The notes under the pieces were generated by a model. That model ran no database searches. It was given only the letters and a program-made list of their open reading frames with translations, and was not told where the DNA came from. A stretch of DNA of 64,000 nt from the NCBI GenBank assembly GCA_049287305.1, contig JBAQFO010000012.1, positions 89,768-153,767 of the forward strand, given 5' to 3'. The position numbers were made by a program, and so were the translations under genes. Position 1 is the first letter of the stretch. Every line of letters starts with the position of its first letter. This document shows positions 6,149-52,455 of the stretch, one piece after another. The DNA comes from Minisyncoccia bacterium. Lineage in GTDB: Bacteria; Patescibacteriota; Minisyncoccia; Phycocordibacterales; UBA9973.

Positions 6149-6790
6149 ATGAAGATCAAGAAACTTGGACACTCCTGCCTAGTAATTAATATTAACGGGG
6201 CTAAGATAATGTTGGACCCCGGCAAGTATTCTCTGTCTCAGGTTGAAGAAAGGGATATTGACATAATTCTAATCACGCACGAGCATAGTGATCATTGCCA
6301 CTTAGAATCTATTAAAAAGATATTGGAGAATAACCCACAAGCAGAAATAATTACCAACTTTTCGGTAGGGAAAATTCTGGAGAAAGAAAGTATTAACTAT
6401 GCAATGATTGAAGATGGGCAGAAGGTTGTAAGTCATGGTGTTACTATTATTGGTGTGGGGAAATTACACATAGAAGCACATCGTAGAATTCCTGTGGTTC
6501 CAAATACTGGTTTTATAATAAATGACAAGTTTTTTTACCCCGGGGATGCGTTGCACATACCAAAACATAAGGTAGAAGTTGTTGCCTTTCCTGTTGGCGG
6601 AGGATTTCTTAAAATCAGCGAAGTTGTTGAGTGGCTCGAAACACTTAAACCCAAAGTGGCTATTCCTGTGCATGATGGCCTACTAAACGAAGACGGTAAA
6701 AAAACTTTCTATAAAAATTACCAAAATATCCTTACAGGCACCGGAATTGAATTTAAGGCATTAGAAGTAAATAAAGAAGAAGAATTTTGA
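6149..6790 (+). CDS. MBL-fold metallo-hydrolase
   Basis: ITHEHSDH (the HxHxDH motif) and further His and Asp ligands downstream. Confidence 0.8.
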   Translation: MKIKKLGHSCLVININGAKIMLDPGKYSLSQVEERDIDIILITHEHSDHCHLESIKKILENNPQAEIITNFSVGKILEKESINYAMIEDGQKVVSHGVTIIGVGKLHIEAHRRIPVVPNTGFIINDKFFYPGDALHIPKHKVEVVAFPVGGGFLKISEVVEWLETLKPKVAIPVHDGLLNEDGKKTFYKNYQNILTGTGIEFKALEVNKEEEF

Positions 6791-26321: not shown

Positions 26322-26380
26322 TCCGATTAACCTGACTTCTTTAAACTCTGGTTAATACGCCTTAAAAAGTATTACAAAAC

Positions 26381-26420
26381 AACCCCCGCCTCTTACGAGA
26401 GGCCGGGGTTTTTTGTTGTT
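26381..26420 (+). terminator. intrinsic terminator: CCCCCGCCTCT TACG AGAGGCCGGGG then TTTTTTGTTGTT
   Basis: Near-perfect hairpin followed by a T tract. Confidence 0.7.
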
Positions 26421-26609
26421 CTTTTTTGTTGTATAATTAGACTATATGAATCCCGTTAGAAGCCCCCGCCCGCTTTCGCCAGAGCAAAGCGATGGCGGGT
26501 GGGGCGATCGCAATGTAAAAACAAATAAAAATATGAAGTTAAATATTGTAAGAATTAATAACTTAACATATCAGATACGCGAGATGATCGCGATCTGCTT
26601 CTAAACGGG

Positions 26610-28544
26610 ATGAATTCAATCATCAGAAAAATAATCTTGGTTTTCATTTTTATATTGCCTTTTATAATTTTCCCATATACACCATATTCAATGGTGTTTT
26701 CAAAATCTCTTTTTTTAGAGGGTGTTACTCTCGTTATTGGTGTTCTTTGGATAATGGGCAAATTATTTAAAACAGAAACAGAAACAGAAAAAATTTCTAG
26801 AAATATCACCCTCTTTGTATTTGGAGTTTATGTTTTTTCTCTTTTAATTTCTGCTCTTAGTAGTTTTGTTCCCGGACTTTCATTTTGGGGAACCTTGGAC
26901 CATGGGACCGGAGCTGTTTTTATGCTGTGTTTATTCCTTTTTTCTGTCATTACCAGTTCGGTGTTTAAAAAGATAGAAGATTGGTACACACTTTTTACAA
27001 CTTTTGTGATTTCAGGAATTATTTTCACCTCGGGAACTTTTTTATCAGAAATGGGGATGAATTTTTTTCCCACTATAACGATCAATGCTTCAGGAGGTTT
27101 TCTTGTTGGCAACTCATCTTGGGCGGGAATTTATCTTGCTTTTGTTTTTTTTATAAGCCTAGGACTTACATTTTCACCACAAAACAAAAGTCATAGAGTT
27201 ATTGGTTTTTTGGGTTTAATCTTTACATTTTTTAACCCAATTATTACTGGCTTTATAATTCCGGCCCCTGATCAGTCTTTTCGGCTCATTGGTTTAGCTC
27301 GAGCATCATTATACTCTATTTTTGCTGGTACTAGTTTTTTTGTTCTTTATTTGTTTTTTAGAAAAATAACATCTATAAAGTGGAGAAAGATATGTATAGG
27401 AAGTTTTATTACGATTTTGGTTGCAGTATCTTTGTTTGTAGTAATCAGCCCAGGTGTGTTTCGTCAGGGCATATCTGAAACAGCCGGTCCAAATAGATTG
27501 ATCTTTTGGGATATTGCAGTTTCTAGTTTCAAAGAACATCCAGTTCTGGGGTGGGGTGGTGATACTTATCAGTTTGCATATGCGAAATATTTTAACCCAA
27601 TTATTACTTCTCCAGGTTATTCTCCAGAATATTGGGCAGATCGTGCACATAGTATATATTTTGACGAACTTCACGCTGGAGGTTTTATTGGTTTTATTTT
27701 ACTTATGTTTTTGTATGGAATAATTTTATTTGGTCTTTTACGTAATGGAATAAAACAAAATGATGAAAATAATATTTTGTTTATGGCTTTGGCGGCTGGG
27801 TTAATCTCTTTTTTGATACAAGGGCTGTTGTTGTTTCAGACTATTGTTGGTTGGGTGGTTGTGTCTATAGTTATTGCTTTTGTTGCTAATTTTTGTTTTA
27901 TGGATAGAAATGTAATTGATACTAAGATTGAGAAGAATAAAAAAAGAAATAAAGACAGTGATAATACTTTTCGTAATTTGTTTTCAGTAGTTGTTATAGT
28001 GATTTTTGGATTTTTATTTTACTATGTAATAATTGTGCCTTATCGTGTTGCTAATATGTTGGCTAGATTTCCGACTGAGTCTTATAGTAAAAGGTTAGAG
28101 CTTTATAAAGAAATAGATAATGCTTATATAGGAAATACCACAGATTTAGGAAATATTTTTTTACCATATCATATTAGACTTAGGCAAATATTGAAAAAAG
28201 GACTCAAGGATGAAGAAAAAAAATTAATGATAAACGAAGCCAAAGAAATTATTAGAATTTTGGATAATGGTTTAAAAAAGCAAGATTACAAAGAGCTGAA
28301 AATTTTGATGGGACAAGCAGGATTTTACTCAGTAGTTATAGCGTTAACTGACGGACAGGAAAGACAAGCTTATTATGATCAAAGTCTGTTTTATGTGGAA
28401 AAAATGAAGCTAGCTTCTCCTCAAAGCCCGACACCAGAAATAGCCAAAGCCCTGCTAGACATTTCCCTCAAATATGGCGAAGAAGGTCTGGATCTTTTAA
28501 ATTTGGATAAAGAAAAAGCTATAAAAGAAAGTAATAATAATTAA
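26610..28544 (+). CDS. O-antigen ligase/polymerase family (Wzy_C-like) membrane protein with a soluble C-terminal extension
   Basis: More than ten TM helices and a central periplasmic loop pattern (WGGDTYQF...YWADRAHSIYFDELHAGGFIG). Confidence 0.5.
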   Translation: MNSIIRKIILVFIFILPFIIFPYTPYSMVFSKSLFLEGVTLVIGVLWIMGKLFKTETETEKISRNITLFVFGVYVFSLLISALSSFVPGLSFWGTLDHGTGAVFMLCLFLFSVITSSVFKKIEDWYTLFTTFVISGIIFTSGTFLSEMGMNFFPTITINASGGFLVGNSSWAGIYLAFVFFISLGLTFSPQNKSHRVIGFLGLIFTFFNPIITGFIIPAPDQSFRLIGLARASLYSIFAGTSFFVLYLFFRKITSIKWRKICIGSFITILVAVSLFVVISPGVFRQGISETAGPNRLIFWDIAVSSFKEHPVLGWGGDTYQFAYAKYFNPIITSPGYSPEYWADRAHSIYFDELHAGGFIGFILLMFLYGIILFGLLRNGIKQNDENNILFMALAAGLISFLIQGLLLFQTIVGWVVVSIVIAFVANFCFMDRNVIDTKIEKNKKRNKDSDNTFRNLFSVVVIVIFGFLFYYVIIVPYRVANMLARFPTESYSKRLELYKEIDNAYIGNTTDLGNIFLPYHIRLRQILKKGLKDEEKKLMINEAKEIIRILDNGLKKQDYKELKILMGQAGFYSVVIALTDGQERQAYYDQSLFYVEKMKLASPQSPTPEIAKALLDISLKYGEEGLDLLNLDKEKAIKESNNN

Positions 28545-28547
28545 TTT

Positions 28548-29450
28548 ATGGAAAAAATAATTGTAACAGGTGGAGCGGGGTTTATAGGTTCACATATTGT
28601 AGATGCTCTTATTGAGGAAGGATACGAAGTGCATGTCGTAGACAATATGTCAGCTGGGAGAAAAGAAAATATAAACCCAAAAGCAGTTTTACATATAGTA
28701 GATATAAGAGAAAAAGAAAAGCTGATCCCGATATTTACAAATGCAAAATATGTATTTCATGAAGCAGCATTTCCGCAAGTTCAGTATTCCATAGAGAATC
28801 CCGTTGAAACTAACGCGATTAACGTAGAAGGTACTTTAAATATTTTAGAGGTTTCTAGGATAAATAAGGTTAAGAGGGTAATTTTTGCTTCTTCTTCTGC
28901 TGTATATGGTGACCAAGATATATTACCCATAACCGAAAGCATGGAAGCGAGTCCACTTTCTCCATATGGCGCACAGAAATACATAGGTGAAGTTTATATG
29001 AAACTTTATGCGCAGATTTATGGAGTAGAGACTATCTCTCTTCGGTATTTTAATGTGTATGGACCTAGGCAGAGCGCAAGTGGTGCCTACGCGTCGGCGA
29101 TTCCTAAATTTATAGAATTTCGGCAGAAGAACGAACCACTTTCTATCACCGGAGACGGCGAACAGACTAGAGATTTTGTAAATGTTAAAGATATAGTTTC
29201 TGCCAACATTTTGGCCATGAAAGGGGATAAGGTAGGAAAAGGGGAAGTGTTAAATATCGGAGGAAATAATCAATACTCTATCAATTACATTGCAAAACTG
29301 GTGGGAGGAGAAGTTTCTTATATTCCTCCTCGAATAGAACCTAGAAATACCCAAGCAGGAATATCAAAGGCTAAGGAGTTCTTAAATTGGGAACCACGTG
29401 TTGTCCTGGAGGAAGGCATAGAAGAATTAAAGAAGTATAACAATATTTAA
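28548..29450 (+). CDS. NAD-dependent sugar epimerase/dehydratase (UDP-hexose 4-epimerase-like)
   Basis: VTGGAGFIGSH Rossmann motif and extended SDR features. Confidence 0.8.
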   Translation: MEKIIVTGGAGFIGSHIVDALIEEGYEVHVVDNMSAGRKENINPKAVLHIVDIREKEKLIPIFTNAKYVFHEAAFPQVQYSIENPVETNAINVEGTLNILEVSRINKVKRVIFASSSAVYGDQDILPITESMEASPLSPYGAQKYIGEVYMKLYAQIYGVETISLRYFNVYGPRQSASGAYASAIPKFIEFRQKNEPLSITGDGEQTRDFVNVKDIVSANILAMKGDKVGKGEVLNIGGNNQYSINYIAKLVGGEVSYIPPRIEPRNTQAGISKAKEFLNWEPRVVLEEGIEELKKYNNI

Positions 29451-29456
29451 CATGTC

Positions 29457-29734
29457 TCCCGTTAGAGATCACTTATGTTTTATTACACATATACTTTAAA
29501 AAGTAAGAAAGATGGCAAAATTTATACAGGATATACGCAAGACCTACGGAAGCGCCCGAGTGAGCATAATAAAGGTTTATCTACATATACTAAAGGACGA
29601 GGCCCATTTATTTTGATATACTACGAAGGGTGCTTATTAAAAGATAAAGCTAGGTCGAGAGAATTATATTTAAAATCAGGAATGGGCAAGCGTTATCTAA
29701 AAAATAGATTAGGCGCTTCCTACCTCTAACGGGA
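29457..29734. repeat. perfect 11-bp inverted repeats TCCCGTTAGAG (29457-29467) and CTCTAACGGGA (29724-29734) bracketing GIY-YIG copy 1
   Basis: Read from the sequence. The right repeat overlaps the GIY-YIG stop and the gmd ATG. Confidence 0.7.
29475..29729 (+). CDS. small stand-alone GIY-YIG nuclease-superfamily protein (YhbQ/UPF0213-like), copy 1
   Basis: [28 protein letters not shown]...ELYLK, with GIY-YIG-like YTGYT and a conserved Arg and Glu. About 85 aa. Paralogous to copies 2 and 3. Confidence 0.75.
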
Positions 29735-30795
29735 TGAAAGATAAAAAAAGGGCTTTAATTATAGGTATTACAGGGCAGGATGGGTCATATTTGGCTGAAT
29801 TTTTGCTAGAAAAAGGCTACGAGGTTCATGGAATGATAAGGCGTTCTTCCAGCTTCAACACCGAAAGATTGGACAAAATATATGAAGATCCGCACGTGGA
29901 CAATCGTCATCTAGTTCTTCATTATGGAGATCTGTCTGATTCCAACAGTATAAATAATATGGTTAATAAAAGTAAACCGGACGAGATTTATAACTTGGGT
30001 GCGCAGAGTCACGTAAGAGTAAGTTTTGATATTCCCGAATATACTGCTGACATAGATGCGCTTGGAACATTACGATTGCTAGATGTTATAAAGGAACAAA
30101 GTTATCCAATAAAATTTTATCAAGCGGGGTCAAGTGAAATGTTTGGGAAAGTTTTAGAGACTCCGCAAAAAGAAACAACGCCATTCAACCCCCAGAGTCC
30201 CTATGGTTGTGCCAAAGTATTTTCGCATATGATTTGCGTGAATTATCGCGAGGCTTATAATATGTTTATTTGCAATGGTATACTTTTTAACCATGAATCT
30301 CCGAGGAGGGGGCGGACTTTTGTTACTAAAAAGGTGGTGGAAGGTCTCGCAGATATAAAACTAGGGAAAAAAGAAAAAATATTTTTGGGAAACCTAGATG
30401 CCAAACGGGATTGGGGTTATGCCAAGGACTATGTGCGGGCTATGTGGCTGATGCTCCAGCAAGATACTCCTGATGATTACGTGATAGCAACAGGAGAGAC
30501 ACATTCCGTCCGTGAGTTCGTGGAATATGCGGCATCTTTGGTTGGTTATAAAATTGTTTGGCAAGGGTCAGGATTGGAAGAAGTTGGTATAGATGAAAAA
30601 TCAGGAAAAGTCCTCATCAGTATAGATGAAAATTATTACAGGCCGTCGGAAGTAGATGTATTGTTGGGAGACAATACAAAAGCAAAAGAGAAATTAAACT
30701 GGGATACCAATGTAAAATTTAAAGACCTTATAGATTTAATGGTAAAAGAAGAATTTGAAGAGCGGGGACTTCCCAGTAAAGATTATATAAAATAA
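29734..30795 (+). CDS. gmd: GDP-mannose 4,6-dehydratase
   Basis: [27 protein letters not shown] and Gmd-specific motifs. Confidence 0.92.
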
Positions 30796-32577: not shown

Positions 32578-32604
32578 ATCCCGTAGTAGATTTTTAATTA
32601 GATT

Positions 32605-32877
32605 ATGTTCTACACATATATATTACAAAGTCAGAAAAATAAAGAACTATATATTGGTTATACTTCAGATTTAAAAAGAAGAGTCGAAGAACATAATCAA
32701 GGGTTAAATTTTTCTACAAAAAGATATATTCCATGGAATATCATATACTACGAAGCGTGTATAGAAGAAAGTGATGCTAAGCGCAGAGAGAAATATCTGA
32801 AAACAACACAAGGGAATAGATTAATAAAGAGAAGGATAAAAGATTATATTTATAAGTTGAAAAATTTAACAAATTAA
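32605..32877 (+). CDS. small stand-alone GIY-YIG nuclease-superfamily protein, copy 2
   Basis: MFYTYILQSQKNKELYIGYTSDLKRRVEEHN. It is bracketed by the imperfect inverted repeat TCCCGTAGTAG (32579-32589) and CACTACAGG (32883-32891). Confidence 0.75.
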   Translation: MFYTYILQSQKNKELYIGYTSDLKRRVEEHNQGLNFSTKRYIPWNIIYYEACIEESDAKRREKYLKTTQGNRLIKRRIKDYIYKLKNLTN

Positions 32878-32891
32878 AAATTCACTACAGG

Positions 32892-34232
32892 ATGATAAAT
32901 ATAATCAATAAAATTAAAAGTTTAACACTCGAGCAGATAAACAAAAACCTAGTTTTTTTGGCTATTATCGCCTTAATTTACCGAAAAGGTAATTTTTACA
33001 ATACTTTTGTTCCAAAGCCATTTGAAATAATTCTCGTACTGATTATCATTCTTACATTTGTGCATTTACTAATCAATAAGAAATTTAAAGCTTTTTTCTC
33101 TTCAATTGATAAAAAAATTTGGATAGCATTGTCGTGCCTCCTGGTATCTGTTTTTGTGGGCTGGGCTGTAGCTGTATTTTTTAAGAATGTGCCGATAAAT
33201 TTCAATGTTATTTTAGAGTTTGGGAATTTTGTAATTTCTTTGGTGATATTTGTATTGGTTTTATTTTACACAAAAAATGATAAAATATTTGCCCAAAAAT
33301 ATTTATACGCATTACTTTTGCCGGCTGTATATACGATTTTTGTGTTATTCACCGAAGGGGCTAATTACTTTAACTTGGAAAACAACGGCACATTTCTTGG
33401 GCTTACAATCAATCCGAATATAATTTCTAAAATATTGCTTATTCCTGCGTTATTCTTTATAACGCATTCTTTGTTTAAACTTCAAAACAGGTGGCTGAGA
33501 ATTGGATATATTGCTATTTCTTGCGCTATGGTTGCTTTATTGTTTTGGGTTGCATCCAGGGGAGGATTGGTTTCTTTGGCGATTTCAATGATGTTCGTGT
33601 GGCTTGTTTTTTCTTTACATCATTTTAATTGGAAAAAACTATTTTATAGTGGTGGACTTCTCTTCATTATATTTTTAATTGGATTTCTTATAACTCCGCA
33701 AACTGGGAAGCAGAGGGTTATCCTTCGAGCTTTATACCCAAGTGGATCTGATTATTCTAGTTATGTCGAAGTTATAAATAAACCGGTTGACGATATTGTA
33801 TCTAAATTTATTACTGATAAGTCAGATAAGCATGTTTTTATTTATGCTAATGGAGAAAATCGTTTTAAAATTTGGCCATTTTATTTAAAGTACATATTGA
33901 TGAACCCACTTGGTATAGGGCCAAATACTCACTTGAGCTTTAGCTTAAAGGATAATGTTGGAGAATATATAAATTCAGGTCCACATAATACTTTCCTACA
34001 AATTTGGCTATGGGGAGGACTGCTAGGGATACTGAGTTTCTTATATATCTTTATCAATGCATTTAAAAACCTAAGATTACAATTAAAATCAGAATTTAAT
34101 CCTACTGCCTTGGCATTGCTTGGAGTTCTATTTGCTGTTAGTATTTCTGTCATGTTTGATGACAGCTTATCATTTTTTTGGTTTTTTATAATTTTAGCTT
34201 TGACATTGAGATATGAAAATACCAGTAGTTAG
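32892..34232 (+). CDS. O-antigen polymerase/ligase-like (Wzy family) membrane protein
   Basis: About 11 TM helices; the WVASRGGLVSLAISMMF pattern is typical of the Wzy_C region. Confidence 0.45.
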   Translation: MINIINKIKSLTLEQINKNLVFLAIIALIYRKGNFYNTFVPKPFEIILVLIIILTFVHLLINKKFKAFFSSIDKKIWIALSCLLVSVFVGWAVAVFFKNVPINFNVILEFGNFVISLVIFVLVLFYTKNDKIFAQKYLYALLLPAVYTIFVLFTEGANYFNLENNGTFLGLTINPNIISKILLIPALFFITHSLFKLQNRWLRIGYIAISCAMVALLFWVASRGGLVSLAISMMFVWLVFSLHHFNWKKLFYSGGLLFIIFLIGFLITPQTGKQRVILRALYPSGSDYSSYVEVINKPVDDIVSKFITDKSDKHVFIYANGENRFKIWPFYLKYILMNPLGIGPNTHLSFSLKDNVGEYINSGPHNTFLQIWLWGGLLGILSFLYIFINAFKNLRLQLKSEFNPTALALLGVLFAVSISVMFDDSLSFFWFFIILALTLRYENTSS

Positions 34233-38899: not shown

Positions 38900-39652
38900 T
38901 TACCACCATTTAAATAGTTTCGATATAATATTTTTGTGGTCCTGATTTGTTGCGTATTTATTTTTAACGTATTTATATTCTGTTCTTTTAATGAAGCGAT
39001 TTAAATGATTGGTTGTTTGGTATTTTCCTATACCTATGACAACATTTATTTTGTTTAAAATTGTTGGTTCACCATATTTTTCATAAAGTCTTCTATAATA
39101 GTCGCAATCTAGTAACCAAGTAAGATTTTCATCAAAGAAGATAAGGTCTTCGTTTTTAATTGTAAGTACTGACGGTGATCCTATTGTATTTTTACCCATA
39201 TAGATTTTATCATTATAAGTAGGGAAATGGAGGTTTATTATCTTTCCGTCACCCTCATCATGCCCGCACCCAGTAACCAGCCAGTTCCCTTTGAAGTTGT
39301 CTACGATATCCTGCAGAGAGTTTTCACTAGCTAAATAATCATCCAAGTATAATATCTTTATTAATTCACCACTTGCTTTCTTGACGGCCTCGTTTGTATT
39401 TTGCGATATTCCCTTTTTTACGGTTTTGTTGTTCTTGGTATATTTAATATCCAAAGATCTATATTTTTCATTTTCACAAATATTTTTTATTACATCATCC
39501 TCGGAATTATCCGTTATGACAACTTCAAAGTCTTTAAATGTTTGTCCAAGAAGTACATTGAGATTATTGGGTAGAAAACTACTAGCCATACCATGCATTT
39601 CGTAGGTGGGGATACAGATACTAACTTTTTTTGTTTTATTGTTTGTATTCAC
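38900..39652 (-). CDS. family 2 glycosyltransferase
   Basis: VSICIPTYEM...VVITDNSED and a DD motif. Confidence 0.8.
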   Translation of the reverse strand: MNTNNKTKKVSICIPTYEMHGMASSFLPNNLNVLLGQTFKDFEVVITDNSEDDVIKNICENEKYRSLDIKYTKNNKTVKKGISQNTNEAVKKASGELIKILYLDDYLASENSLQDIVDNFKGNWLVTGCGHDEGDGKIINLHFPTYNDKIYMGKNTIGSPSVLTIKNEDLIFFDENLTWLLDCDYYRRLYEKYGEPTILNKINVVIGIGKYQTTNHLNRFIKRTEYKYVKNKYATNQDHKNIISKLFKWW

Positions 39653-44355: not shown

Positions 44356-45360
44356 TTACTTTTCGTGTTTATTGCAATCTAAGTATTTTTTTGAAATGAT
44401 TTTCTGCCACCAAGGCTTGTTTTCTTCATACCATTTAATGGTCTTTTGTATTCCTTCTTCAAAAGATACAGAAGGGCTCCATCCTAATTCTCGGGTAATT
44501 TTTGAATGATCCATGGCATAACGCATATCGTGCCCCCTACGATCTTCTACGAAAGTTTGTAAACTTTTCGGTTTATTTAGCAGGTTCAATATGGTATCAG
44601 TAATTTCAAGTCCATTTTTCTCTGAATCTCCCCCGATGCAATACGTCTCTCCTATTTTGCCTTTGTGGATTATTAAATCAAGAGCTTCACAATGATCTAT
44701 GACATACAAATAGTCTCGCACAGCTTTACCTTTACCATAAACAGGCAAAGGTTTGTTTTCAAAAGCATTAGTTATAAAAAGTGGGATTATTTTTTCCGGA
44801 AACTGGAACGGGCCATAGTTATTTGTACAGTTTGAAATTGTGGCAGGGAAATTGTATGTTTCAATGAAAGCCCTGACTAGGTGATCTGAGCCAGCCTTTG
44901 ATGCGGAGTAAGGGGACCTAGGAGAATACGGAGTATTCTCCTTAAATTTTTCTCCCGGTTTGTCGAGCGACAAGGTGCCGAAAACTTCGTCGGTGGATAC
45001 GTGGTGAAATCTTTTTAAATTAAACTTTCTTGCAGTTTCTAACAACACCAGTGTGCCTTTGACATTGGTTTCGACAAAATCTTCTGGGTTCTCAATTGAC
45101 CTATCCACGTGGGACTCGGCGGCAAAATGAACCACCAAATCACATCCCGTCATTGCTTGCATAACTATTTTTCTATCGCAAATGTCGCCGTGAATAAATG
45201 TATAATTTGGGTTATTCTCTATGCTTTTTAAATTGTCTAAATTTCCAGCATAGGTTAGTTTGTCTAGGTTTACTACCTCGTAGGTAGGGTATTTATTCAT
45301 CATATAGATGATAAAGTTTGAACCTATGAATCCAGCTCCACCCGTGACTAGAATTTTCAT
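44356..45360 (-). CDS. rfbB: dTDP-glucose 4,6-dehydratase
   Basis: MKILVTGGAGFIGSNF and YSASK. The start ATG at 45358-45360 overlaps the stop of GIY-YIG copy 3. The longer track ORF to 45465 is that upstream gene read in another frame. Confidence 0.9.
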   Translation of the reverse strand: MKILVTGGAGFIGSNFIIYMMNKYPTYEVVNLDKLTYAGNLDNLKSIENNPNYTFIHGDICDRKIVMQAMTGCDLVVHFAAESHVDRSIENPEDFVETNVKGTLVLLETARKFNLKRFHHVSTDEVFGTLSLDKPGEKFKENTPYSPRSPYSASKAGSDHLVRAFIETYNFPATISNCTNNYGPFQFPEKIIPLFITNAFENKPLPVYGKGKAVRDYLYVIDHCEALDLIIHKGKIGETYCIGGDSEKNGLEITDTILNLLNKPKSLQTFVEDRRGHDMRYAMDHSKITRELGWSPSVSFEEGIQKTIKWYEENKPWWQKIISKKYLDCNKHEK

Positions 45361-45629
45361 CACGTATGAAATAGGAATCGTTTTAAACGAGAATTTAAAT
45401 ATCTTCTCCCCATTCCTGTTTTTAAATATAATTCTCTCGACCGAGCATCGTCTGCGTTTAGACATGCCTCATAGTACATAATCTTATATGGTCCACGTCC
45501 TTTTGTATATGTTGACTTACCTTCATTGTGCTGTTTAAAACGCTTCCGTAATTCACTCGTATATCCAATATACCACTTATTATTCTTTTGACTTTGTAAA
45601 ACGTAAGTATAGAACATATTAGATTTCAT
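45360..45629 (-). CDS. small stand-alone GIY-YIG nuclease-superfamily protein, copy 3 (probable start at MFYTY, 45617)
   Basis: MFYTYVLQSQKNNKWYIGYTSELRKRFKQHN; STYTKGRGP and ARSRELYLK are shared with copy 1. The direct repeat CGTGACTA occurs at 45343-45350 and 45631-45638. Confidence 0.75.
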   Translation of the reverse strand: MKSNMFYTYVLQSQKNNKWYIGYTSELRKRFKQHNEGKSTYTKGRGPYKIMYYEACLNADDARSRELYLKTGMGRRYLNSRLKRFLFHT

Positions 45630-45635
45630 ACGTGA

Positions 45636-51714: not shown

Positions 51715-51926
51715 TGAGGGGACAATGAAGAATCATCAGAGCCTGAGTTGTTCAGGAAAGGGGCAAAACGCAAGTTAGCCCCTTTATCATTTCCAGGCTT
51801 GCGGTTTGGACGAATTGTGATATATTACATATACCGCAGAGAAAGTAGGCACAGATAGTTTATCTGGTTAAGTCCTATTTAGTGGGTCGATATTCCTTTT
51901 GCCTATATGGTGGAATGGAAGAAAAA

Positions 51927-51950
51927 CTTGCGGCGGAAGCCGTTTTTTTG
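51927..51950 (+). promoter_or_regulatory. attenuator-like hairpin (CGGC GGAA GCCG then TTTTTTT) in the rplJ leader
   Basis: A GNRA-capped stem plus a U-run about 30 nt upstream of the rplJ ATG. Many bacteria have a regulated rplJ leader. Confidence 0.45.
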
Positions 51951-51975
51951 TTGAAAAAAATTAAATCAAAAAATT

Positions 51976-52455
51976 ATGTTACAAAAATCAAAAAAGGAGG
52001 AAATGATAAAAGACCTGGAAGGAGCCATTAAAGGTTCCGAATCTTTGGTTTTTGTTAATTTCCATGGCTTGAAAGTAGCCGACGAAACCAAGTTAAGGAG
52101 AGCTTTGCGAGACAACGGAGTAAACTACAAAGTGTCTCGAAAGACTCTTTTGAAACGCGCTCTTGAAGGCAAGGCGGAAGGAGAATTGCCTGAACTTGCC
52201 GGAGAAGTAGCGATAGCGTATTCCAAGGACGGCACCGCGTCTCCTCGCGAAGTTTACAACTTCCAGAAAGCGAATAAAGGTCTTCTAAACATTATCGGAG
52301 GCATATTCAATGGAAAATTTGTGGATGGAGCATATATGATGGAGATTGCGACAATCCCTTCCAAGGAAGTTTTGCTTTCAAAGTTCGCATTCTTGCTGAA
52401 GAGCCCAATGCAGAGATTTGCCTTGGCCTTGAGCGAAGTGTCAAAGAAAAAATAA
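51976..52455 (+). CDS. rplJ: 50S ribosomal protein L10
   Basis: Matches the L10 family; followed by rplL. Confidence 0.9.
   Translation: MLQKSKKEEMIKDLEGAIKGSESLVFVNFHGLKVADETKLRRALRDNGVNYKVSRKTLLKRALEGKAEGELPELAGEVAIAYSKDGTASPREVYNFQKANKGLLNIIGGIFNGKFVDGAYMMEIATIPSKEVLLSKFAFLLKSPMQRFALALSEVSKKK

Follow-up and report, generated by a model that had tools for sequence, protein, structure and literature searches.

A GIY-YIG nuclease gene between terminal inverted repeats forms a candidate mobile element inside the gmd start codon of a Minisyncoccia bacterium

We analysed a 64,000-nucleotide stretch of DNA (the window) from a Minisyncoccia bacterium of the Patescibacteriota, in which a small GIY-YIG nuclease gene at the junction of an epimerase gene and gmd is bracketed by 11-bp inverted repeats. 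From sequence comparison, these repeats are probably the core of terminal inverted repeats (TIRs), 13 bp long, that delimit an element of 278 bp which resembles an insertion sequence (IS), is mobilised by its own GIY-YIG nuclease and has inserted at the A^TGAA start of gmd. The element, referred to here as copy 1, belongs to a large family in the ultra-small Patescibacteria, with conserved TIRs, target-site duplications (TSDs) of 3–5 nt, empty sites, near-identical copies at different genes and gene-less derivatives.

The element at the epimerase/gmd junction

The window carries TCCCGTTAGAG at 29457–29467 and its exact reverse complement, CTCTAACGGGA, at 29724–29734, just as described in the original prediction, which was made from the sequence of the window. 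The pair extends to 13 bp with one A·C mismatch, giving a left TIR, TCCCGTTAGAGAT, at 29457–29469 and a right TIR, ACCTCTAACGGGA, at 29722–29734, both read on the forward strand. The left 13-mer recurs in more than 35 homologous elements, and the arms covary between subfamilies. As delimited by its TIRs and by the empty site of a related contig, the whole element spans 29457–29734 on the forward strand. Its sole gene, an open reading frame (ORF) at 29475–29729 on the same strand, encodes a GIY-YIG nuclease (PF01541, E = 2e-15). The prediction of such an ORF inside the repeats held; its length is 84 aa rather than the 85 aa first given, a figure that matches the 85 codons counted with the stop.

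The right TIR contains the last sense codon of the ORF and its TAA stop (29727–29729), and its final base, A29734, supplies the A for the start codon of gmd, in agreement with the predicted overlap of the right repeat with the stop codon and the gmd start. The junction was likewise placed correctly, but the element does not lie exactly between the two genes: it sits inside the gmd start codon. The epimerase gene stops at 29448–29450, and the old gmd ATG is retained at 29452–29454. Positions 29452–29456 (forward strand) hold this ATG and a decayed left TSD copy, TGTC as compared with TGAA on the right, as judged from the empty site TAAT-ATGAAAGAT. The right TSD copy, TGAA, corresponds to gmd bases 2–5 and lies at 29735–29738 on the forward strand; its assignment draws on the flanking-repeat statistics of 63 elements given below. 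The left flank ATGTC of copy 1 also occurs at a homologous locus, L007, although the hosts differ at their starts (ATGAA in gmd, ATGGA in the L007 host); the shared flank could have been carried over or could be a coincidence.

Empty sites and signs of movement

In the closest syntenic contig, L081, where the epimerase is 86% and the gmd product 93% identical at the amino-acid level, the gmd ATG comes straight after the epimerase stop and the cassette is missing. The junction reads ...AATATCTAAT ATGAAAGATAAAAAAAGGGC in L081, as opposed to ...AATATTTAAC ATGTC–(278 bp)–TGAAAGATAAAAAAAGGGC in the window. The cassette is absent from all five related gmd contexts (L081 and four more within L082–L087), a pattern of presence and absence among relatives that supports insertion. 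Together with the rarity of the 11-mer in the window, it bears out the earlier suggestion of a small selfish or mobile insertion. A second empty site is found at the GT11/Wzy junction, where L082 and L083 read ...GGGTAAGAATATGAAAAATATAATAAAT, an ATGA stop/start overlap, whereas the window has ...GGGTAAGAATATGAA–(314 bp)–TGATAAATATAATCAAT.

Several further observations point to movement. Two elements in one metagenome-assembled genome (MAG), in front of MurG and of a glycosyltransferase (L067 and L068), are 99.6% identical, and hosts that are only 58–75% identical in amino-acid sequence carry elements that are 80–92% identical in nucleotide sequence. Elements at orthologous start codons are not mutual nearest relatives. 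A pair of SMC genes with 84% identity carries members of different subfamilies, 67.7% identical to each other. Single genomes also hold several copies at non-homologous sites, with three copies and one gene-less element within the 64-kb window.

Some host start codons are occupied repeatedly: that of the MQFKVPQ gene at five loci, that of SMC at two and that of the site-2 protease at three. The MQFKVPQF... gene encodes a small membrane protein, and an element lies in its start codon in five diverged genomes, with a gene-less one in a sixth (L001, L002, L008, L027, L040 and L066). This start is either a hot spot or the site of an old insertion with later turnover.

The repeats compared with chance

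The 11-mer occurs at only two sites in 64 kb, the two ends of copy 1. One more copy with a single mismatch, at 26451, compares with 0.70 expected and is the end of a gene-less relative, so the 11-mer is not common in the window. Taken by itself the 11-bp repeat is not significant there, and perfect 11-mer inverted repeats spaced 150–400 bp apart number 20, compared with 8.2 ± 3.4 in Markov shuffles.

By tblastn, the window contains three GIY-YIG mini-genes: that of copy 1 and two others at 32605–32877 (forward strand, copy 2) and 45360–45617 (reverse strand, copy 3). We ranked 66 ORFs by their longest bracketing perfect inverted repeat, measured between the region just before the ORF start and the region around the stop. 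The top three (13, 11 and 10 bp) are the three GIY-YIG genes, followed by a repeat of 9 bp; the chance of their taking the top three ranks is 1 in 45,760. Because of this ranking, and because the bracket recurs in 63 homologous loci, we take the repeats to be real. The window gave no Rfam match at gathering thresholds and no tRNA or tmRNA by ARAGORN, so the repeats belong neither to a known RNA nor to a tRNA fragment.

A family of elements in Patescibacteria

More than 1000 close homologues of the nuclease, 80–94% identical and nearly all of 84 aa, occur in Patescibacteria MAGs. By exhaustive HMMER search, 5148 clusters (at 50% identity) were recovered at E ≤ 1e-3 and 546 at E ≤ 1e-10. We examined 80 genomic loci, picked for intact, high-scoring ORFs, and recognised 63 elements with 13-nt arms and at most one mismatch, among which copy 2 of the window was included with three mismatches. 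The elements are 274–314 bp long, most of them 276–282 bp, and have ends of the form TC(C/A)CG...C(G/T)GGA with TIRs of 13–15 bp, the left arm starting 15–27 nt ahead of the nuclease ATG. Elements of the main subfamily have identical 13-mers as arms, TCCCGTTAGAGAT and ATCTCTAACGGGA. Other subfamilies have TCCCGTACGAAAT, TCACGTATGAAAT, TCCCGTACAAAAT, TCACGTACAAAAT or TCCCGAAC..., always with a matching right arm. Remoter subfamilies found in metagenomes (50–60% amino-acid identity) have ends such as CCCTGTAGTAG.../...CTACAGGG and likewise lie at start codons.

The two arms change together. Across 34 distinct arm pairs, 98.4% of cells are paired and 10 of the 13 positions are compensatory, a result equalled in none of 500 shuffles. 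Within the right arm, the nuclease stop takes up three different positions and frames (TAAcgggATG, cgggATGA and acgTGATG), which indicates that this arm is constrained at the nucleotide level and not through the protein. Among 31 ORFs of the main subfamily, the median dN/dS is 0.106 at a dS of 0.80 while the arms stay identical; protein and ends are thus both kept by selection.

Gene-less elements with perfect 13-nt ends were found at 18 places in 13 loci. They measure 71–128 bp (most 97–128 bp) and usually have ATGNN/TGNN flanks. In about 700 kb of loci and the window, we found no larger element and no gene other than GIY-YIG between such ends. A larger parent element with the same ends was considered and rejected, since the long-range pairs were combinations of separate elements. 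A search of IMG/VR viral contigs gave no relatives, which argued against a phage origin.

Full-length and gene-less elements also form tandem arrays, 3–4 nt apart (L026, L050, L056, L060, L066, L075 and L079). One of these, in L026, reads CGGGG/TGAA/CCCCG, as if a rebuilt target had been hit again, and in L079, which carries the label Nitrospirota, a single nuclease gene is surrounded by four short elements. Variant ends, CCCCG...CGGGG, occur in L026, L039, L079, L080, L092/L093 and L142/L143; their last base is G, and the rebuilt start would be GTG.

Insertion in start codons and target duplication

TG follows the right end directly in 59 of the 63 elements, so that the terminal A and TG make an ATG, and the ATG rebuilt in this way opens a long host ORF in 58 of the 63. 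The hosts are unrelated, with more than 40 different genes occupied. They include RpiB, TrmD, RuvC, YqgF, RecR, TopA, MurG, SMC, AlaS, PheT, Frr, Xth, the site-2 protease and the small membrane protein, as well as gmd, fcl, rfbB and Wzy.

An ATG also precedes the left end by 4–6 nt in 46 of the 63 elements (35 at −5). The left flank usually consists of ATG and one to three bases that repeat the start of the host gene, as in ATGCA/TGCAATT, ATGGA/TGGA and ATGAAA/TGAAA. Of the 63 elements, 40 lie between exact direct repeats of 3–5 nt, usually TGNN and 4 nt long in 28 cases, compared with about 10 when flanks are re-paired at random. Two insertions are not at an ATG, that of L009 (CTAA/CTAA) and that of a short element in L048 (TCA/TCA), and for this reason we assign the terminal A to the element. 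The empty target sequence is TAATATGAAAGAT.

The window has 381 ATGRA sites, of which 20 are at starts, 14 intergenic and 347 within genes. With random use of ATGRA and loss of disruptive insertions, about 60% of the surviving elements are predicted at starts, whereas 92% are observed there, all in sense orientation. The excess amounts to around five standard deviations by a normal approximation, in a sample biased to intact ORFs. It may reflect active targeting of start codons, or only copies borrowing a host start may stay intact.

The GIY-YIG protein

The product of copy 1 scores 57.3 bits against PF01541 and that of copy 2 66.0 bits, with a cut-off of 22.6. In the family alignment, residues Y4, Y6, Y17, G19, R27, H31, N32 and E63 are invariant, and Y6, Y17, R27, H31 and E63 occur at what we take to be the catalytic positions of I-TevI. 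The nearest profile matches in the PDB are headed by UPF0213, with BH0048 (1zg2, E = 3.4e-11) followed by EF2693 (1ywl, 5e-6) and then SLX1 (about 1e-3). The AlphaFold2 model has a pLDDT of 89.5 and the elements E-E-H-E-H-H, in keeping with the three-stranded sheet and helices of the GIY-YIG fold. By Foldseek, it resembles, in descending order, UPF0213 1zg2, Slx1 (TM about 0.7), the catalytic domain of I-TevI and the N-terminal domain of UvrC. The protein amounts to a minimal GIY-YIG domain and belongs to the UPF0213/Slx1 branch.

Against TIGR01453, the group-I-intron endonuclease family, the proteins score 19.7–22.9 bits, below the cut-off of 56.05. An I-TevI-type homing endonuclease was rejected on this score, on the single 84-aa domain and on the more than 40 host genes. 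By Pfam, the ORF has no DDE, HUH, serine or tyrosine transposase domain, and it falls in no recognised transposase class (DDE, DEDD, HUH, serine, tyrosine or Cas1).

Expression and RNA structure

A Shine-Dalgarno (SD)-like motif precedes 1 of 61 nuclease ATGs and none of the 63 rebuilt ATGs. SD-like 4-mers are rare at ordinary starts too (3 of the 24 that were sampled in the window, compared with 18% of random 15-mers), and translation initiation in this organism seems to be largely SD-independent. We therefore discarded SD analysis as a guide to which ATG is used. Many genes of the window abut or overlap (ATGA, TAAnATG).

In every subfamily the nuclease stop lies at most 4 nt from the rebuilt ATG or overlaps it, which is the geometry of termination-reinitiation coupling. 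Directly upstream of the left end, the host initiation region and the old ATG are retained. A frame read from this old ATG leads to an in-frame fusion to the nuclease (92 aa, for example in L003), to a stop in the left arm or to a stop shortly past the nuclease ATG. The fusions occur in 279-bp variants (L003; P0009, P0071, P0085 and P0101), in which the old host ATG is in frame and the 92-aa proteins have an MDPVRDHL-type extension from the left arm.

A terminal stem of the two arms is present in both the minimum-free-energy (MFE) and the centroid RNA fold, with z = −1.9. Arm mismatches comprise four A·C, two G·U and four others. With no preference for G·U among them, selection on the arms at the RNA level is not demonstrated.

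Proposed mechanism and alternative explanations

Insertion of the element into the gmd start codon has left the old ATG upstream, and its last A together with the duplicated TG provides a working ATG. We propose that the GIY-YIG protein could recognise or cut the TIRs and an (A)TGRA target, probably as a multimer on two identical ends, and that host repair or replication could complete the move. Having no evident promoter or ribosome-binding site, the element would borrow the transcription and the initiation region of the host gene, which would then be translated by termination-reinitiation. In the mRNA, the TIR stem may loop the element out and bring the rebuilt ATG beside the native leader. 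The position in start codons would follow from a preference for (A)TGRA, from selection against disruption in genomes that are 93% coding and from the need for host expression signals. More tentatively, the 84-aa GIY-YIG protein could itself be the transposase of the 276–282-bp element, which would make it a new mechanistic class in prokaryotes and the element by far the smallest autonomous transposon, one that actively targets and rebuilds start codons and could thereby persist within essential genes of minimal genomes on borrowed expression signals; we regard this stronger claim as possible without leaning towards it.

A number of points weigh against a nuclease-mobilised element. GIY-YIG enzymes are hydrolytic nucleases, and we know of none with strand-transfer activity, so that such chemistry does not account for integration. 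Within its 84 aa the domain offers no distinct DNA-binding module for reading a 13-bp end. Exact direct repeats are lacking in 21 of the 63 elements, and within the window copy 1 shares only TG between its flanks and copy 3 nothing. The loci were chosen for intact ORFs, so that decayed copies elsewhere are under-sampled. Reoccupied start codons, as in the five MQFKVPQ and two SMC loci, could reflect old insertions and concerted evolution and not repeated transposition. Translational coupling and RNA looping, finally, are inferred from geometry only.

A chance inverted repeat around an ordinary small gene would suit the abundance of 11-mer inverted repeats at 150–400 bp in the window (20, with about 8 expected), but the top-three ranking, the recurrence in 63 loci and the empty sites refute it, and we give it practically no weight. 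It is unlikely that the repeats act mainly as an RNA stem, with arms that loop out the nuclease ORF or stabilise or process the mRNA and with mobility that is rare or otherwise caused. Such a stem would account for the fold in both MFE and centroid predictions, for the covariation of the arms and for a right arm kept in three reading frames, and it might supply the other route of initiation that the host gene needs when none of the 63 rebuilt ATGs has an SD-like motif. The 13-nt sequence of the main subfamily, however, is itself invariant at a dS of 0.8, over and above its pairing; the mismatches do not favour G·U and the fold z-score is only −1.9. A stem would also leave the TSDs, empty sites and gene-less copies unexplained, and it is compatible with a mobile nuclease element rather than exclusive of it.

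The nuclease might otherwise be a free-standing homing endonuclease gene that cuts cassette-free alleles of one particular site and is copied in by double-strand-break repair, with repeats that either are incidental or belong to the recognition site. GIY-YIG counts among the classic folds of homing endonucleases, the protein is weakly similar to TIGR01453, the same host starts are occupied in several genomes (five for MQFKVPQ, two for SMC, three for the site-2 protease), and empty and occupied alleles coexist among relatives. We nevertheless consider homing rather improbable in view of the more than 40 unrelated host genes occupied, and it predicts neither the duplication of host bases at the flanks nor gene-less derivatives that share the ends. 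The TIGR01453 score (19.7, with a cut-off of 56), a length of 84 aa with no DNA-binding domain for a long target and the absence of viral relatives in IMG/VR also speak against it. Very unlikely, in our judgement, is a non-autonomous element moved in trans by a transposase encoded elsewhere, with the GIY-YIG gene as a passenger serving repair or defence. Gene-less copies with the same ends must indeed be moved in trans by something, UPF0213 proteins are ordinary single-copy genes in other bacteria, and GIY-YIG is, to our knowledge, no class of bacterial transposase. Against a passenger role, nothing but GIY-YIG was ever found between such ends in the roughly 700 kb of loci and the window, and no larger element. 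Moreover, TIR subfamilies change with protein subfamilies, purifying selection on the ORF is strong in all subfamilies, and the ORF fills the element almost fully and overlaps its right end.

Comparison with known systems and implications

Insertion sequences and miniature inverted-repeat transposable elements (MITEs), such as IS630/Tc1-like elements with short fixed TSDs and the Correia elements of Neisseria, are the closest comparators for a nuclease-mobilised element. They share with it TIRs, a short TSD, dispersed copies, empty sites in relatives, short gene-less derivatives and probable co-transcription with neighbours. Unlike in ISs, the only protein is an 84-aa GIY-YIG nuclease, and the insertions are nearly all in start codons, in sense orientation and with the codon rebuilt. 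The autonomous ISs known to us measure about 600–700 bp or more, so that an element of 276–282 bp is far smaller.

The free-standing and intron-borne homing endonucleases I-TevI, Seg and Mob of T4-like phages have the same catalytic fold and are encoded by selfish genes that lie between conserved genes or ahead of them and tightly overlap neighbouring frames. The family described here differs from them in having no DNA-binding domain, a TIGR01453 score below cut-off, many unrelated sites, TIRs, TSDs and gene-less copies, and in its absence from viral contigs. UPF0213/YhbQ and Slx1, regarded as cellular, structure-specific nucleases of repair and recombination, are closest in sequence and structure and share the stand-alone GIY-YIG domain of about 90–100 aa; the TIR-bounded arrangement embedded in start codons sets the present family apart, none having been reported for them in the literature searched. 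Rickettsia palindromic elements and IStrons are likewise selfish DNA in expressed genes of reduced genomes, and the gene products are kept. The former, however, are translated in frame and encode nothing and the latter splice from RNA, whereas the element here rebuilds the start and would rely on coupling. In Penelope-like retroelements, too, a GIY-YIG nuclease within a transposable element cuts the target, but these are eukaryotic and need a reverse transcriptase, which the bacterial element lacks.

In the full-text literature open without subscription, we found no description of a GIY-YIG element with inverted-repeat ends or of a start-codon-embedded element in Patescibacteria. The single paper found to mention GIY-YIG genes of Patescibacteria names them just as part of a set of repair genes acquired by horizontal transfer (PMC12455944).

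Should the element be moved by its GIY-YIG protein, that protein would represent a new enzyme class of transposase, and the lower size limit for an autonomous mobile element would come down to about 280 bp and one 84-residue protein. The family would also illustrate how selfish DNA persists in 93%-coding genomes, where a duplicated ATG and translational coupling would make an insertion nearly harmless. Annotation would be affected as well: hundreds of entries named "GIY-YIG nuclease family proteins" among Patescibacteria MAGs would count as transposon genes and not as repair genes. Many start codons, and the nuclease variants with N-terminal extensions, have probably been mis-called. The expression of operons in Patescibacteria may depend on read-through of such elements. 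For engineering, so small a nuclease, with its defined 13-bp end and 4–5-nt target, could be attractive.

Other copies and features of the window

Copy 2, a 314-bp element at 32579–32892 on the forward strand, occupies the start codon of a Wzy-like gene (32892–34232), and its ORF encodes 90 aa. Its TIRs are imperfect and 22 nt long (32578–32599 and 32872–32893; repeat ATCCCGTAGTAGATTTTTAATT), and a TIR of about 22 nt is conserved in this subfamily at loci L088–L116, found by scanning metagenomes with copy 2. Copy 3, 276 bp at 45360–45635 on the reverse strand, occupies the start codon of an rfbB-like gene (44356–45360, reverse strand) and encodes 85 aa. Its TIR is a perfect 13-bp repeat, TCACGTATGAAAT, of a subfamily shared with L047, L051, L058 and L165. 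The repeat sequences differ among the three copies, and every right arm ends at the A of the next gene's ATG. The flanks are ATGAA/TGAT for copy 2 and ATGAA/TGAA for the gene-less element, while copy 1 has its decayed duplicate and copy 3 is without one.

The gene-less element is a 160-bp MITE-like relative at 26451–26610 on the forward strand, in the start codon of an O-antigen-ligase-like gene (26610–28544), with ends TCCCGTTAGAAGC and GCTTCTAAACGGGA. Its left end equals that of copy 1 at 11 of 13 nt. Like a MITE, it is short, has no transposase gene, carries TIRs like those of its autonomous partner and is flanked by a target duplication. Its only ORF, a read-through frame of 52 codons (26446–26604), starts with the old ATG, crosses the element and reaches a TAA located 5 nt short of the rebuilt ATG. 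The interior holds GC-rich hairpins and a subterminal second inverted repeat of the CGCGATCGC type, a type also common to short elements in L002, L018 and L053. Upstream, in the region 26372–26440, a GC hairpin that resembles a terminator and leads into a T run (approximately 26372–26410) precedes a TATAAT box, some 8 nt ahead of the old ATG (26446). Transcription of the Wzy-like gene may yield a leaderless or near-leaderless mRNA.

Elsewhere in the window, perfect inverted repeats of 12–13 bp with a spacing of 150–250 bp occur at 6527–6707, 39289–39530 and 51783–52010. They are unlike the element ends; two lie within genes and one across an intergenic region.

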